Origin: a virus
Lineage: Duplodnaviria > Heunggongvirae > Uroviricota > Caudoviricetes
IMG/VR virus record: IMGVR_UViG_2711768013_000010
DNA: 43,729 bases
Strand: one strand, 5' to 3'
The notes below the pieces were generated by a model. That model did no database searches, had not been told where the DNA came from, and saw only the letters and a program-made list of their open reading frames with translations. Of the stretch, positions 2,272-33,544 are shown piece after piece. Numbering within the stretch: the stretch's first letter is position 1; every line of letters starts with the position of its first letter. The position numbers were made by a program, and so were the translations under genes.

Positions 2272-2835
2272 TTACGTAACATCAAACGCTCTAATTGTTC
2301 CCAAATCCTCCAGACCACTCAGCTCCTCTTTCATTTCACGCTGACGGCGATAAATCTCATCGTTGCGATCGACCTGCGCCTGCACCATTGCTGCCGCCAG
2401 TTCTTCCAGTTCCGGCATCGACAGTTTCACCTGCTGATTATCGGCATCACCCCACGCCATATGCGTTTGTGCTGTGACAGATTTTGCCAGCATGACTACC
2501 GGGGACAGGCGGCCCAGTGAGTCGGGGCCAGCATTCCAGATACGACCATTCCATTCAAACGTGAACGGCTTCGCCTCCTGTTCTGTGCGCCATGCTTCAA
2601 TTTCCTGACGTCTGGCCTCTCTGGCCGCTTCCAGCATTTCTGGTGTCACAGTGAATGGGGCTATCTCACCCCATTTGCCACTTTGCAGTTCCTGCCAGAT
2701 TCGCTGACCCGTCGGTGCGACATCATCAGCGGTGGCTGTGTAGGGGACTGCCTGGTCCCTGTCGTCAAAAAAAACGTCACAGTCTACTGCGCCACTTTCG
2801 GTATAACGGGGATTAATGATTTTTTTAATTTCCAC
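2272..2835 (-). CDS. putative tail fibre assembly/chaperone protein
   Basis: ORF 2272..2895 immediately downstream of and overlapping the tail-fibre gene end; start trimmed to a GTG near the tail-fibre stop (uncertain). Assignment by position and general resemblance, not by a defined motif. Confidence 0.5.
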   Translation of the reverse strand: MEIKKIINPRYTESGAVDCDVFFDDRDQAVPYTATADDVAPTGQRIWQELQSGKWGEIAPFTVTPEMLEAAREARRQEIEAWRTEQEAKPFTFEWNGRIWNAGPDSLGRLSPVVMLAKSVTAQTHMAWGDADNQQVKLSMPELEELAAAMVQAQVDRNDEIYRRQREMKEELSGLEDLGTIRAFDVT

Positions 2836-2845
2836 GGTGCATTCC

Positions 2846-4018
2846 TCACGATGTGCGAATAAAAAGCCCGGGCATTGCGCCAGAGACATGAGCATCCGGC
2901 ACCCCGGACAGGGCGCTATATGACCCCGGTAATGAATGCTCTGAACATCCCGTAATGAAAAATTGTGGGGATGCTATATACGTTCCGGTGGGAGTACTGG
3001 GCACTGAAATCCCCACCGGTCCCAGTCGTGAGCCTCTGTATGACTGCCCCCTGACAAGTCTGATGACTTTATCACCGTCAGCTTCTCCCTGGTACGCAGC
3101 AATAATCAGCCCGCCAATGTCAGGGTCTCCCCATCTGTTGCAGACAGAGCTCGCCACGATTCTGTAAATAATATCTTCTGTGGTTATATTTATTTTCACC
3201 CAGCCAGTCAGTCTGGATATGGGCCAGTAGCAGTAGCGGGTGTGATAAATGGGGCCGTTAATGCCGTAAAAAGTAAGGGATTTGGCTCTGTACCTCGGTT
3301 CTGTTGTCTCAGGGCGTGCATCAGTCCACCGGATGCTGAGCACCCCTTCAAACCGTGTGTCGGGTATGATGATGTCGTAGGGGCCAGCAACGGAATATTC
3401 ACCTGGCAGCGCATTCCTTACCCAGGCCAGGAAATCACTCTTAGTGTCAAAACGGATAACATCTTCAGGCAGAAAAGCACACCCAAAGCCGAATGCGCCG
3501 GGTATCGCCAGACGGCCTTTTGTCCGGTCGTAAATGTCGCTCTGTGCTTCCATCGTGGCCGCACTTTTCAGCCCCAGATTATCCCGGGACTTCTGTTGTG
3601 CCTTTTCGCCTGCTGCTGCGATTTCAGACAGATGGTTAGCCGTTTTCAGAGTGCCGGTCAGCGCAGCATCAATGTCATTTTTGGCCTGCTCTGCTGCGCG
3701 GGCATAACCTGCGGCTGCCGCCACATCCTGCGCCGTCTGCTGTGCGTTTCCGGCTGCGGCCCCGGCGCTCTGCTGCGCCTGCGCCACCATTTCCTCAAAG
3801 CGTTTGACGACATCCGGTTTCAGGTCGCCCTCATCAGGAGCAATCAGAAAGTCATTCAGCGTGCCGGGCTTTGAGTCGTCGTATACAGCAATGTCGCCAA
3901 CGTTGTACTCGTTGTGCCAGCCCGGTTTCAGATACACACCATATTTTCCAGTCCGCGCATGGAAACAGTATTCACCATCGTTTCCTGTCATCACATCAGC
4001 AACAGTGTGCATCACCAC
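2846..4018 (-). CDS. side tail fibre protein, C-terminal portion (N-terminus apparently removed by IS66 insertion)
   Basis: 390-aa ORF with Ala/Gln-rich coiled region and C-terminal receptor-binding-like part; reading frame stays open upstream through 4019..4075 into the putative IS terminal repeat, i.e. no native start. Confidence 0.6.
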   Translation of the reverse strand: MVMHTVADVMTGNDGEYCFHARTGKYGVYLKPGWHNEYNVGDIAVYDDSKPGTLNDFLIAPDEGDLKPDVVKRFEEMVAQAQQSAGAAAGNAQQTAQDVAAAAGYARAAEQAKNDIDAALTGTLKTANHLSEIAAAGEKAQQKSRDNLGLKSAATMEAQSDIYDRTKGRLAIPGAFGFGCAFLPEDVIRFDTKSDFLAWVRNALPGEYSVAGPYDIIIPDTRFEGVLSIRWTDARPETTEPRYRAKSLTFYGINGPIYHTRYCYWPISRLTGWVKINITTEDIIYRIVASSVCNRWGDPDIGGLIIAAYQGEADGDKVIRLVRGQSYRGSRLGPVGISVPSTPTGTYIASPQFFITGCSEHSLPGSYSALSGVPDAHVSGAMPGLFIRTS

Positions 4019-4035: not shown

Positions 4036-4616
4036 TAAGCGTGCAGCAAGAACCGTATTGACGGGAATGTGTTATTCAGTCGGCAGTGCTACGCGCCAGG
4101 GGAGCAGTTCGCCGACCCGGTTTATCGGCCAGTCGGCTATGACGTCAAGGACATAGCGGAGGTAGCTTTCTGGCTCCACTCCGTTCAGTTTGCACGTCCC
4201 GATCAGGCTGTACAGCAGCGCTCCCCGCTCTCCTCCATGATCCGAACCGAAGAACAGGTAGTTTTTGCGGCCCAGACTGACCATCCGCAACGCATTTTCA
4301 GCGATGTTATTGTCCGCCTCAGCCCAGCCATCATCTGCATAGTACGTCAGCGCCGGCCACTGGTTCAGGGCATATGCGAACGCTTTCGCCAGTTCTGAGT
4401 GTCGCGACAGGGTTTTCATCTTTTCACGCAGCCAGCTTTCCAGGGATTTCAGCAGCGGTTTCGTTTTCAACTGACGTTCGGCAAGGCGCTGTTTCAGCAG
4501 GAAGATGTCGTCAGAAGAGATGTCGTTCATAAGCCCGTATTTTACCGGGCTTATTCTGTGACAACCAGGATAAAGAGATTTACAGCATGGTCAGGGAGGT
4601 CAGCAGCCGCTTAGGC
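4036..4616. mobile_element. IS66-family insertion sequence, right-end fragment (putative terminal inverted repeat + transposase 3' part)
   Basis: GTAAGCGTGCAGC.. at ~4036, the typical start of IS66-family terminal repeats; contains the TnpC C-terminal fragment; joined at ~4617 to the Mu-like prophage right end. Confidence 0.6.
4072..4530 (-). pseudogene. IS66-family transposase (TnpC/orf3), C-terminal fragment
   Basis: 152-aa ORF recognised as the C-terminal region of IS66 transposases; an in-frame stop at ~4582 upstream and no N-terminal ~330 aa anywhere in the window. Confidence 0.7.
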
Positions 4617-4637
4617 TGTCTATAGCGCGGCGATTTT

Positions 4638-4703
4638 TTTGATACCGATTTGCATTTCATTTGATACCGCTGAAAAACGCCGATACGCAACTTATTTGAT
4701 ACT
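4638..4703. repeat. right-end transposase-binding-site candidates: three copies of TTTGATAC(C/T)
   Basis: TTTGATACCG at ~4638 and ~4660, TTTGATACT at ~4695; mirrored by three inverted copies at the left end (42944..43099). Confidence 0.55.
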
Positions 4704-4748
4704 AAATCGGCGCTTTTCTTTTGAGTTTTAGAATGAGTTTTTAAGCGT

Positions 4749-5486
4749 TCATTCACTCTCTTTCAAACCAGTTTTAACTGTTTGTGGTTTTGGGTAAGGC
4801 TGGACTTTGAATAGCTTTGTGTTAAGGCGTTTTCTGGCTCTCTTGTCCAGAAACCGGATGTAACGAAACTGACGGAATTTATGAACACTGGCTCTGTCGA
4901 TATTAGCCCGCAGATGTTCACCTCGCTGTCCTCCTCGTTTGATTGCATTCTTGCAAATCTCGTGATACCACTCGCCATCAAGTTCATAGAATGTTGTTTC
5001 ATGACTGCCTACATAATCAAAATTGCTTGCCTGGTACACGACACCAAGACAGCCACAACGCTCATCTGCAAACGACTGAACCCACTGCACCTGCGGATAA
5101 AGTTGTCTGATTAGTTTGAGCGCGTAACTGATTGCCCTTGATTCGGAGTTTCTCGGCATACAGTCATGCAGCCATAACCGGTTAAGCTCCATATATTCGC
5201 GGTTCTGCGTGCCAGTTACGACGCGTGCACCATTGTTTGGATTAAGGGCATAACCCCATTGCATTACGCCAACCAGCTCCCGTTCTGAAAATATGCCCAG
5301 ATGAAGGTAGGAATTATTTACGAAACGATGGCTGTAATGTTTATTGACGACGACCAGCCGGGCCAGCCAGCAACTTATTGTCTCAACCCGTAACTCACGG
5401 GAGCCATAACCGACGATATTGTCGTTATAGTGAATAAGTTCAGGCGTGCTGATGATACGGGATGTAACTTGCTTTCTGTTCCCCAC
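4749..5486 (-). CDS. mom: Mom-like DNA modification protein (anti-restriction adenine modification), start uncertain
   Basis: Large ORF 4749..5681 immediately downstream of and overlapping a Com-like zinc-finger gene, at the right end of a Mu-like prophage exactly where mom sits in Mu; start placed at an in-frame GTG (~5486). Call rests on position and the com partner. Confidence 0.6.
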
Positions 5487-5640
5487 GACAGGATTTCCTT
5501 GTGTATGTGGGGTGCTCTGTGGCGCTCTGAGATGTGATTTGATTGAGGGTTTTACAGCGCGGACATTTAACTTCCAGATAACTGAAGCTGGCTCGTGCCA
5601 GTAGCTTGTTACAATGTCGGCACCGTATGTTTCGATACAT
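5440..5640 (-). CDS. com: Com-like zinc-finger translational activator of mom
   Basis: ..[26 protein letters not shown].. matches the C-x2-C..C-x2-C zinc-finger pattern and flanking residues I recall for Mu Com; ORF 5440..5685, start probably the internal Met (MYRNIRC). Confidence 0.7.
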
Positions 5641-5685
5641 GGCCGCATAACCTCCTGCTTTGTTGTTGATATCTTTATCACTCAA

Positions 5686-5775
5686 TCGATCGACAAAAAC
5701 GATCGATTTGATTTATTTAATTGATACAACAAATAACACGAAATGTCATTAGCGAAAATTTATGAGTTTGATCAC
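5686..5775. promoter_or_regulatory. GATC (Dam-site) cluster upstream of com-mom: candidate methylation-sensitive operator/promoter region
   Basis: Two CGATCG motifs 13 bp apart (~5688, ~5701) and a third GATC (~5770) in an AT-rich region just upstream of com; in Mu the mom promoter is controlled by three upstream GATC sites and OxyR. Confidence 0.4.
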
Positions 5776-5896
5776 TAATTTTAAACGGTGCTGTAACGCA
5801 TAAGTGCTGAATGATTGTACATTTGAATACCGCAAAGCAAACAAATCAACTAATTTATAGAAGTCAATTGGTTAATTGCCAGCGTAAGAGGCTGCT

Positions 5897-6190
5897 ATGG
5901 ACAATCATGTAACGACGAGAAATCGAAAAATGATTGAAAATGCGGAAATCTATAATGATTATTTTTCCGATTATTCAGATGCCTGCAAATACAGTTCGAG
6001 TGCGGGAGAGTTCATATGCTTCAACTTTTTTATTAAATCTTATGTTTTTCCTCCACAGCAAGAAGATGGAGGTGTGCCACCTCCTGAAATCACTTTGCAC
6101 CGTATAGCCTCCGTCTCAATGATGGAGCAACAGGCTAATGAGCTGTATAGCATTCTGGGAACGATTCTACAAAAGCGTGAATCGGACTAA
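5897..6190 (+). CDS. hypothetical protein (opposite-strand, AT-rich; candidate moron)
   Basis: 97-aa ORF preceded by a good Shine-Dalgarno (AAGAGG, ~7 nt upstream) and -10-like TATAGA; low GC relative to the phage backbone; no recognisable domain. Confidence 0.45.
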   Translation: MDNHVTTRNRKMIENAEIYNDYFSDYSDACKYSSSAGEFICFNFFIKSYVFPPQQEDGGVPPPEITLHRIASVSMMEQQANELYSILGTILQKRESD

Positions 6191-6357
6191 TGATACCGGT
6201 TCATTTGCCTGCCCGGATGGGGAAGCAGGATTGACTGCTCCATAAGCAGCTATATTTCTGAATACGAAATACTATCCAGCGATTACATATGGCTGGATAG
6301 CGGCAAAGATGTTTTCATTAGTGTCAAACCGGCAGAGGACACCACCGGTTTGTATTG

Positions 6358-6612
6358 TTACATCATGGTACTGTCAGTTCCGGGCTGAGCCGGGTCTGGT
6401 TGCTCTGGCTGCGCGTCGGTTTTCGGCTCATTATCAGCATCACTGGCCGCAACTGCTGGCCCAATAAGTTTTGCCAGCACTTCATCAACGTAAGTGTCGA
6501 TTTGTGCCTCAAAATCCTTGCGGACCTGCGCTTTCAGCAACTTATTTACTTCACCGGAATACAGTGCCTGTTTTACCAGGTCTTCAGTGACGGTGCCTTT
6601 AATTTCTGGCAT
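6358..6612 (-). CDS. hypothetical protein with acidic Pro-rich C-terminus
   Basis: 84-aa ORF; followed on the minus strand by a hairpin CAAACCGG..CCGGTTTG (~6321..6348). Confidence 0.4.
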   Translation of the reverse strand: MPEIKGTVTEDLVKQALYSGEVNKLLKAQVRKDFEAQIDTYVDEVLAKLIGPAVAASDADNEPKTDAQPEQPDPAQPGTDSTMM

Positions 6613-6647
6613 GTATATCCTCCTTATGCGGGAATAAAGCCCTGCAA

Positions 6648-6842
6648 TCAGGGCTGGGTCGGGTCTTTTGGGAGCGGAGTTACCTGCGCTGTTTTACTGA
6701 GTTTTTCAGCTGCTGCGTCCTCAATTTTGCGGCGAACATAATTTCTGATGGCCTTATAACCACCACTCACCAGATATAACGCACATACTGCCGTGCAGAA
6801 ATACAATAAAATAAGCTGTAAAAATGTCATTATCCCTCCCAA
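6648..6842 (-). CDS. small putative membrane protein (one predicted TM helix)
   Basis: 64-aa ORF with hydrophobic N-terminal stretch FLQLILLYFCTAVCALYLV followed by a basic region. Confidence 0.4.
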   Translation of the reverse strand: MGGIMTFLQLILLYFCTAVCALYLVSGGYKAIRNYVRRKIEDAAAEKLSKTAQVTPLPKDPTQP

Positions 6843-6974
6843 TTATTGACATGGTGTTGACACCGGTAATATCTGTTAGGTAAAAAGGTGCACTGCATTT
6901 TTTGCTTTGGATATAACGATCTTTTTGCCGCCGGTTTCTTGTTTTCCCTTACCGGCGGCATTTTTTTATCCTGC

Positions 6975-21147: not shown

Positions 21148-21425
21148 CAGGACGTCCCCTTATCTGATGCTGCGGTTTTTTCAGCCACCGCCGCAGTTTT
21201 TTCTGCTACCGCTCCCGCTGGTTTTGCCGCCGCGCCGGTATTAGCAGTTGTGGCAGCCGGGGCAGGCTCCGCCGTTTTATCCACCACAATGACGTCGCCA
21301 TCATTAAGACGGCGGCACCAGAACGGAGTGAAGGGTTTCTCTTCCCCGTCCTGAGAGAGCGGAGTCATCGTGTCGGGATCGCGGATCAGGCATCCCGGCG
21401 CAGGTTTAATAAAAATGGTTGTCAT
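21147..21425 (-). CDS. DUF2635-like small protein (Mu gp38)
   Basis: 92-aa ORF with Ala/Thr-rich C-terminus, directly upstream of sheath gene. Confidence 0.6.
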   Translation of the reverse strand: MTTIFIKPAPGCLIRDPDTMTPLSQDGEEKPFTPFWCRRLNDGDVIVVDKTAEPAPAATTANTGAAAKPAGAVAEKTAAVAEKTAASDKGTS

Positions 21426-24888: not shown

Positions 24889-25065
24889 ACCGGCAGCATA
24901 AGCCGGGTATTTTTGGGGCTGGTTTTGCGGGACTTCAGAAAGTGCTGACAGGGGGGGAATGAGAAAGGCGCTTCACGCAGATTTTAAAGCCCGTTAAATA
25001 CAGGTTAGAAAATCACGACACGCGCCTGAAGGGGGTAAGGTAATACGTTTGCATACCTTAAACCA

Positions 25066-33050: not shown

Positions 33051-33121
33051 TGTTACGCTGTCTCATGGTGTTCTCTGAGTCAGCGTAACCGTGAGGAAAA
33101 GGGGGCAGGATTTGCGGAATA

Positions 33122-33544
33122 TCAGAAAAGCCGTGGCTGCGTGCGTTCCTGATGCAGGCGACGCTGGTTGCGGATAACGGAGTAAATCTGCGTCTCTGAC
33201 ATCTGGTAGTGGCGGCGCAGGGTTTCAATTTTTTCGCCCTGGCTCCAGCGGGAAAAAATTTCATTATTGCGCAGTTCGGTGAAAAGGGATTCACCGACCG
33301 GGAGATAATAACCACGCCCGCCCATGTACCCGGCCTGTGCGGCTGCAACCTTACGGGCAAGCATTCCCGCCTGAGCAGGTTCAATCCCCTGACGGTGCAG
33401 TTCAGCACTGATCACATCAACCAGGTCCCGCAGCGTGCCGGGCCAGTTCTTTTTCAGCTCATCATCAGGAATATCATCCAGACGGTCAATCAGCGCGTGC
33501 AGCTGTTCGCTGTCACCAAACATGCTCATCTGTGTTTCAGCCAT
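33122..33544 (-). CDS. Mor/C-family late transcription activator
   Basis: 140-aa ORF of Mor/C size and family by recognition, between gemA and the lysis genes; only one member of the family found. Confidence 0.8.
   Translation of the reverse strand: MAETQMSMFGDSEQLHALIDRLDDIPDDELKKNWPGTLRDLVDVISAELHRQGIEPAQAGMLARKVAAAQAGYMGGRGYYLPVGESLFTELRNNEIFSRWSQGEKIETLRRHYQMSETQIYSVIRNQRRLHQERTQPRLF

Follow-up and report, generated by a model that had tools for sequence, protein, structure and literature searches.

The com and mom genes

A Mu-like prophage of E. coli carries at its right end two overlapping genes, com and mom, both on the minus strand. We analysed one stretch of 43,729 nucleotides (43.7 kb) from a Caudoviricetes record (IMGVR_UViG_2711768013_000010), hereafter the window, and the features that we place in it are collected in Table 1.

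Table 1. Features of the com-mom region, the prophage right end and the late activator gene in the window
Feature	Coordinates	Strand	Description
attR (prophage right end)	4621..4748		Transposase-binding-type repeats TTTGATACCG at 4638-4647 and 4660-4669
mom (Mom adenine-modifying enzyme, tRNA(Gly)-dependent GNAT family)	4749..5486	-	245 aa, GTG start
com (translational activator)	5440..5640	-	66 aa, ATG 5640, stop 5440, CCCC zinc ribbon
Translation-inhibition hairpin	5481..5512	-	CCCCAC (5507-5512) pairs with GUGGGG (5481-5486), which contains the mom GUG
Predicted Com-binding hairpin	5512..5525	-	GCGC[CACAGA]GCAC, with CC-ACA-GAG at 5515-5522
com ribosome-binding site	5651..5656	-	AGGAGG, 10 nt before the ATG; read from the sequence
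Tentative -10	5671..5677	-	TAAAGAT (Mu TAAGAT), about 31 nt before the com ATG; inference only
Inverted repeat	5684..5708		AATCGATCG-N7-CGATCGATT, perfect 9-bp inverted repeat containing both Dam sites
OxyR-like operator	5689..5725	-	ATCAATTAAATAAAT-N7-ATCGTTTTTGTCGAT, 37-mer with two 15-bp half-sites 7 bp apart; predicted
Third GATC	5770..5773		Only in window-identical copies and one further copy (L041); probably incidental
C homologue (Mor/C family; Mu late activator C)	33122..33544	-	40 % identical to Mu C, E = 2e-37

The frame that holds mom is open from 4749 to 5681. An earlier reading made from the letters alone (the sequence-only reading) had proposed that this frame encodes a Mom-type enzyme whose start is overlapped by a Com-like zinc-finger protein. 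Aligned with Mu Mom, the product of the frame proves to be a close Mom homologue and not merely a GNAT-like protein: the two enzymes are 78 % identical over 229 aa with no gaps, and the alignment to the chain of the Mom crystal structure in the PDB (8bv8_A, 2.4e-123) is also ungapped. The Pfam Mom model (PF25680) is matched over its entire length (1-202 of 202) by residues 96-298 of the large frame with E = 1.6e-77 and 260.2 bits compared to a cut-off of 27.1, and the large ORF matches PHROG 1384, 'Mom-like DNA modification protein', at 6e-83. NCBIfam holds no model for Mom, for Com or for the neighbouring ORF of 86 aa. By every sequence criterion the window protein can be placed in the Mom family.

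Mu Mom has been reported in a 2026 study to move glycine from Gly-tRNA(Gly) onto the N6 of adenine in double-stranded DNA, where the adduct rearranges to N6-carbamoylmethyl-adenine (6-NcmdA) (PMC13219725). R111, S124, D149 and R151 of the Mu enzyme are essential, while H58, Y59, Y159, W48 and W181 as well as the insertion formed by residues 175-209 are important (PMC13219725). All nine of these residues are identical in the window Mom, where each number is that of Mu Mom minus 8, and the Mom-specific, helix-turn-helix-like insertion is present at full length as judged by sequence. The window protein would thus be a GNAT-fold enzyme with the chemistry described for Mu, and the resulting 6-NcmdA would block many restriction enzymes. 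The identity of Mom and the retention of all functionally tested residues point to an anti-restriction module acting through adenine modification, as had been proposed.

Com matches the Pfam family Zn_ribbon_Com (PF10122; E = 7.5e-13, 48.2 bits compared to a cut-off of 22.9) and the PHROG families 'translational regulator' and 'gpCom' at about 1e-13 (2.9e-13 for gpCom). Its zinc-ribbon cysteines are N-terminal (C7, C10, C26 and C29) and the protein is 45 % identical to Mu Com. The 3' end of com overlaps mom by 47 nt (5440-5486) compared to 50 nt in Mu. The ribosome-binding site of com is nearly invariant among 11 aligned lineage variants, the exception being AGAAGG in one of them (L044). The overlap of a Com-like zinc-finger protein with the start of a larger ORF is therefore confirmed by both the family match and the 47-nt overlap.

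This pair is a known, ordinary and annotated module. The 1.2-kb segment comprising com, mom and attR was found by megablast in 233 of 5,426 complete E. coli genomes, and the NCBI pipeline annotates the exact window coordinates for both genes. The window proteins are identical to RefSeq entries, WP_014334043.1 for Com and WP_000528246.1 for Mom, both annotated under these names and with the same coordinates. Product names for Mom are 'tRNA(Gly)-dependent adenine aminoacyltransferase Mom' and, in older records, 'Mom family adenine methylcarbamoylation protein' or 'protein mom'.

The prophage right end

The pair had been placed at the right end of a prophage, and the end can now be located at 4621. 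Alignments of the right end to 18 E. coli genomes in which the neighbouring genes differ all end at 4621-4614. At 4621 the sequence switches to ISEc8, the remainder of which picks up again at 43117, and comparison with an intact ISEc8 copy indicates that the prophage interrupts this insertion sequence. In the same comparison only TGTC (4 bp) appears duplicated; a duplication of 5 bp requires one mismatch, and a second genome is compatible with either 4 or 5 bp. The termini read TATAGCG... and TATAACC..., and the first TTTGATACCG repeat lies 17 nt inside the terminus at each end (4638 and 43099) in inverted orientation. Further copies of the repeat are found at both ends, also inverted (11 matches compared to 2.4 expected). 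Since the same end is joined to differing flanks, the terminal repeats are inverted and ISEc8 is interrupted, the element is a Mu-like transposable prophage of 38,496 bp (window 4621-43116).

The prophage is apparently intact. Both ends are preserved, and the genes for transposase A and B, C, lysis, head and tail functions, com and mom are all uninterrupted ORFs in the window. The end of mom is 128 bp from the prophage right end compared to 115 bp in Mu. The ISEc8 copy that bears the prophage is located in a degraded prophage region beside ssrA. The C homologue is encoded directly upstream of the lysozyme gene, as in Mu, and is a possible trans-acting regulator of the com-mom operon.

Predicted translational lock on mom

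The start of mom had been called ambiguous, with a GTG at about 5486 as the best guess. The guess was right and the ambiguity disappears: in the 120 nt that precede the conserved part of mom there is no in-frame start codon other than GTG 5486, this codon is homologous to the GUG of Mu, and the NCBI pipeline annotates the same start.

In Mu, the GUG start of mom lies within a hairpin stem, and the Com target is CC(N)2-3GAG within a hexaloop (PMC6483171). Both elements have counterparts in the window. The hairpin that holds the window GUG folds, within a stretch of 41 nt, at -12.6 kcal/mol (z = -2.2; 3 of 200 shuffles are equally stable), and the start codon has an unpaired probability of 0.00 in the predicted ensemble. 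The inner stem of this hairpin partly covers AAGGAA. A second, smaller predicted hairpin adjoins the start-codon hairpin on its 5' side and carries a CC-N3-GAG motif, whose spacing to the lock is that of Mu. The stem of this small hairpin has one C.A mismatch and the folding program gives just two of its pairs, making it a marginal prediction. In the window and in Mu alike, the small hairpin and the lock overlap by one base, which ends the former and begins the latter, and this shared nucleotide is consistent with the published proposal that the lock opens once Com has bound.

Each of 10 com-bearing relatives that belong to other genera sequesters either its start codon or its Shine-Dalgarno sequence, and the arms of the lock vary between them (CCCAC/GUGGG, GUCUCCGA/UCGGAGAC, CCUCCA/UGGAGG and UGCCA/UGGCA). 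Rfam gave no match in the com-mom region or in com-less leaders.

The proposal that the pair follows the Mu arrangement, with Com unlocking the translation of mom, thus finds a predicted Mu-type lock consisting of a Com hairpin followed by a hairpin that holds the GUG. By analogy with Mu, Com would be translated first from the shared mRNA, would bind the CC-ACA-GAG hairpin and would open the lock over the mom GUG.

GATC sites upstream of com

GATC occurs at 5688-5691 and 5701-5704, both as CGATCG and 13 bp apart, and at 5770-5773, and nowhere else between 4243 and 6917. All three sites are located where the sequence-only reading had reported them. GATC is not enriched in the window, with 132 occurrences compared to 164.5 +/- 12.7 expected. 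The 13-bp pair at com is unique in the window; the count of GATC sites alone is nevertheless weak evidence because other close GATC pairs exist elsewhere in the window, and the strength of the case comes from homology.

Alignment with the mom promoter of Mu gives ATCAATTAAAT, then CGATCG, 13 bp and GATCGATT, such that the window pair, spaced by the same 13 bp, falls on GATC2 and GATC3 of Mu Pmom and corresponds to them. The pair forms the downstream half of the predicted OxyR-like 37-mer. This 37-mer agrees with the OxyR consensus at 13 of 20 positions, a modest match that equals the best score in Mu's own GATC region and that is reached at three sites in the whole window. Across 11 lineage variants, 21 consecutive alignment columns spanning both GATCs are invariant, while nowhere in the region is variation greater than in the adjoining 15 bp, which also contain an indel. 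GATC pairs with a spacing of 13 bp or 18 bp recur upstream of com/mom in Edwardsiella, Symbiopectobacterium, Scandinavium and Neptunomonas and in viral contigs.

The third GATC lies beyond the conserved block and behaves differently from the pair. Variants that are 95-97 % identical diverge upstream of about 5735 and are without it, and this site is probably incidental. The comparison of the cluster with the Dam-dependent, OxyR-repressed mom promoter consequently holds in part: the two CGATCG motifs match Mu GATC2 and GATC3 within an OxyR-like site, but the third GATC is not conserved and the promoter is not a copy of that of Mu. Dam/OxyR control of com-mom, carried over from Mu, would be a well-supported reading rather than a demonstrated one. 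An operator that is unmethylated or hemimethylated would bind OxyR and stay off, and full methylation by Dam would relieve this repression.

Tentative core promoter and lack of a recognisable activator site

The window promoter departs from that of Mu in its layout. Relative to the com ATG, the GATC pair is at -64/-51 in the window compared to -91/-78 in Mu, that is, 27 bp closer to the gene. In the alignment with the Mu promoter, the Mu C site ATTATGCCCCAATAACC has no counterpart upstream of com, the 27 bp that hold it being missing, and the position of Mu GATC1 reads GTATC.

Comparing the region upstream of com with the regions upstream of the lysozyme and protease genes, we found a likely box for the C homologue of this phage, composed of CCGCAAAnCCnGCCCC, 14 nt and TAYGCT, which is exact upstream of both the lysozyme and the protease genes. 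Upstream of com, CCGCAAAnCCnGCCCC is absent within 3 mismatches. Candidate boxes at 21259 (3 mismatches) and 33599 (2 mismatches) were rejected, the former being located within coding sequence and the latter in a terminator-like hairpin. The motif GGTTATGCGGCC, just before the com ATG, matches the -10 region of the protease promoter at 10 of 12 positions and was treated as a chance match, with no box upstream of it.

A scan for sigma-70 promoters revealed nothing sigma-70-like on the com strand, a result that fits a weak promoter and places none. The tentative -10 element is at the same distance from com as the -10 of Mu and is not conserved among close variants. For Mu, the transcription start 22 nt before the com ATG was derived from an oligonucleotide covering -58 to +20 (PMC3378877, PMC4461284). 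Short-layout relatives have TATACT, TATAGT or TAGATT 7-9 nt after the second GATC, and these are better -10 hexamers. With TAAAGAT as the -10, the operator would extend over the spacer and the -35 region, an arrangement also seen in gtr. The operator probably overlaps the core promoter, unlike in Mu.

Interpretation and alternatives

Taken together, the region is very likely a com-mom operon at the right end of a Mu-like prophage, with Mom locked at the levels of both translation and transcription. This reading draws on what the analysis itself shows: the identity of the genes, the conserved catalytic residues, the RNA structures as predicted, the conserved operator and the location of the pair at the end of the prophage. 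For the chemistry of Mom, the action of Com at the lock and the control by OxyR and Dam, we rely on Mu, and these parts are correspondingly conditional. Expression would be locked twice because Mom is toxic. The gene identities are uncontradicted and the weak points all concern regulation.

The alternatives that touch the gene products can be largely set aside. A longer Mom starting at the in-frame ATG 5648 or GTG 5681 and running through com in another frame would take advantage of the open frame from 5681 and of the AGGAGG just before ATG 5648. That ATG is merely 2 nt from the ribosome-binding site, however, and in Mu and most relatives the upstream frame is open for only 18-66 nt. In addition, the Pfam Mom model and the alignment to Mu begin just after 5486, Mu Mom initiates at the homologous GUG inside the hairpin (PMC6483171) and NCBI annotates 5486. 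We rejected this isoform on the comparison of the upstream frame with Mu and relatives and regard it as extremely unlikely. It is equally hard to believe that Com is a DNA-binding transcription factor and does not act on the mom mRNA. The RefSeq product name, 'Com family DNA-binding transcriptional regulator', says so, but experiments on Mu Com have established that it binds the RNA hairpin adjoining the start-codon hairpin and then activates translation (PMC6483171; PMC3378877), and both the RNA motif and the structure are present in the window. The RefSeq name is misleading because Com acts on RNA. Whether the module is expressed at all is a separate matter. An insertion sequence in the degraded prophage region beside ssrA harbours the prophage, and related copies in other genomes have IS insertions or large deletions, so that one could think of a cryptic remnant from which mom is never expressed. 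The uninterrupted com, mom, A, B, C, lysis, head and tail ORFs, the two intact ends and the retention of all catalytic residues make such a silent state very unlikely.

The promoter leaves more room for discussion. One possibility is that the genes are com and mom as described, but that the GATC pair is an inherited relic that no longer serves as a Dam/OxyR switch, transcription being controlled otherwise. The loss of GATC1, the spacing to com that is 27 bp shorter than in Mu and the missing C site agree with this, as does the OxyR score of 13 of 20, which two other window sites equal by chance. A relic would nevertheless have to account for the 21 invariant bp over both GATCs in 11 variants next to 15 bp that vary and carry an indel, for the 13-bp pair being kept in distant short-layout lineages (Edwardsiella L005 and viral contigs L049-L051) and for its being the sole 13-bp pair in the window. 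We consider a relic unlikely and retain the operator as a probable part of the lock. A further, more doubtful hypothesis is that in this lineage and in the short-layout Edwardsiella and viral relatives the Dam/OxyR operator has moved onto the core promoter with loss of the activator site, and that mom is gated mainly by the methylation of the two GATCs, as in gtr and agn43, and not by the late activator. If true, Mom would be expressed from the resident prophage independently of C and possibly in a phase-variable manner, modifying host DNA. Only in this promoter variant would the locus be more than a repetition of Mu.

Beyond a correct annotation, the significance of the locus is small. With a predicted Mom system that looks functional, the DNA of the induced phage should resist many restriction enzymes, which bears on the host range of the phage in E. 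coli. What is mildly new is comparative only: two forms of mom promoter can be distinguished, a long one that resembles Mu and has an activator site and a short one that has none. The latter would offer a simple setting in which to study Dam/OxyR control alone.

Comparison with known systems

The closest known system is that of Mu (NC_000929, 35768-36602). The window shares with it the gene order, the com/mom overlap, the location about 120 bp from the right end and the C-family activator encoded before the lysis genes. At the RNA level, the GUG lies in the 3' arm of a CCCAC/GUGGG hairpin that is preceded by a hexaloop hairpin with CC-N3-GAG, which in Mu reads AUGC[CUGCGA]GCAU. Upstream of com, two GATCs 13 bp apart within an OxyR-like site and the ATCAATTAAAT motif are common to both. 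The window differs in being without Mu's GATC1, C site and T6 spacer, in the loop of the lock hairpin (20 nt compared to 11 nt in Mu) and in Mom itself, which has a C-terminal extension of 12 aa and two extra N-terminal residues. Moreover, gin is not adjacent in the window, where about 3.4 kb of cargo genes and an ORF on the opposite strand are located between the invertase and com.

According to the literature, genes for Mom and its regulators occupy the matching position in SP18 and in further Mu-like phages (PMC3299994). As for the Mu-like prophages of E. coli O157:H7 and other STEC, this com-mom lineage is found with about 95 % identity in many O157:H7 genomes, labelled 'protein mom' and 'Com family', and we do not equate these copies with Sp18 itself. 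They are about 5 % divergent and, because their sequence further than about 95 bp upstream of com is unrelated, lack the third GATC.

The likeness to P22 gtr and E. coli agn43 is one of layout only. In P22 gtr, a 13-bp GATC pair is located inside one half-site of the OxyR dimer and its methylation blocks binding; GATC3 and GATC4 are at -46 and -33, and the operator overlaps the promoter (PMC2909390). The window pair would be at about -27 and -40 if the tentative -10 holds. We saw no further OxyR site at com-mom that could act as an alternative and that has a GATC pair to itself. While gtr and agn43 control the heritable phase variation of surface structures, the window gene is a phage gene of the lytic phase.

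Finally, a DNA-modification gene preceded by a Com homologue is also known from the right end of phage B3 and of further Mu-like prophages (PMC3299994). Those phages carry a DNA adenine methyltransferase in place of Mom, whereas the gene downstream of com in the window is a true Mom.

Sequence upstream of com and GATC distribution

The 15 bp that separate the com leader from the two Dam sites (the GATC pair) are hypervariable in variants of the window's own lineage (L033-L048), among copies that are otherwise 95-100 % identical. This stretch is followed by a CAA repeat whose copy number differs, with three copies in the window and five in variant L041. All of mom and com lie within 1,445 bp free of GATC, where about 4 sites are expected from the window average. 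Only one more tight cluster of GATC sites occurs in the window; it has three sites inside 27 bp (positions 65, 77 and 88; spacings of 12 and 11).

Divergent from com is an orphan ORF encoding a hypothetical protein of 86 aa (WP_000571916.1 in RefSeq), with no match in Pfam, PHROG or NCBIfam. It sits in a stretch of 33-40 % GC and has promoter-like sites nearby.

Table. Coordinates of features in the window
Feature	Position	Strand
GATC cluster	65-91	
ORF upstream of tmRNA gene	1014-1496	+
tmRNA gene	1711-2073	+
ORF downstream of tmRNA gene	2272-4018	-
ISEc8 flanks	4072-4620; 43117-43729	
GATC-free stretch	4243-5687	
Mu-like prophage	4621-43116	
33-40 % GC stretch	5600-6200	
Region with hypervariable stretch and CAA repeat	5657-5687	
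Promoter-like sites near orphan ORF	5876-5905; 5934-5962	
Orphan ORF	5930-6190	+
Three cargo genes	6358-9029	-
gin-like recombinase gene	9115-9822	
Putative invertible segment	9778-10963	
Box shared upstream of protease and lysozyme genes	24915-24930; 33102-33117	-

mom loci without com or with a truncated com

The mom genes found without com are about 69 % identical and come from viral contigs (L070-L103) and from genome-derived loci of Yersinia, Serratia and Sphingomonas (L012-L015 and L018). In place of com these loci have a conserved GC-rich leader, about 110 nt before mom, with no match in Rfam. The leader contains a hairpin, GAG(U/C)AC...GGAG(U)(A/G)C, that has two covarying pairs and hides the Shine-Dalgarno sequence. 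It may be a different, undescribed means of locking mom translation. At another locus, from Symbiopectobacterium (L016), com is truncated and about 200 bp of unrelated sequence separate it from mom; this copy of the operon seems to be in decay.

Probable late promoters

The upstream regions of the lysozyme and protease genes share the box CCGCAAA(T/A)CC(T/A)GCCCC, and after a gap of 14 nt comes TACGCT or TATGCT. These sites are probably late promoters on which the homologue of the Mu activator C acts. For the protease gene a leaderless mRNA is suggested, since its -10-like hexamer stops 6 nt short of the ATG and a ribosome-binding site is absent.

Insertion history and comparison with Mu

A full-length tmRNA gene (295.8 bits) near the window start is followed by tail-fibre-like ORFs and then by an IS, and the window therefore begins at the ssrA locus beside a degraded prophage; the ORF upstream of the tmRNA gene may be smpB. 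The IS is an ISEc8 (IS66-family) element interrupted by the Mu-like prophage, with the C-terminal part of the transposase on one side and the remainder of the IS on the other. The degraded prophage at ssrA received the IS first and the Mu-like phage afterwards. Among the collection's complete E. coli genomes, none has the junction between prophage and ISEc8.

A segment beside the gin-like recombinase gene aligns in reverse with strain 23CRST047; it is apparently an invertible tail-fibre region of the G-segment type, captured here in its other state. A 5 bp target duplication is typical of Mu; at the ends of this prophage only 4 bp (TGTC) seem to be duplicated. The prophage carries three cargo genes in the interval from the invertase gene to com, which is empty in Mu; they encode a 684-aa DUF6645 protein and then DUF1378 and DUF826 proteins.
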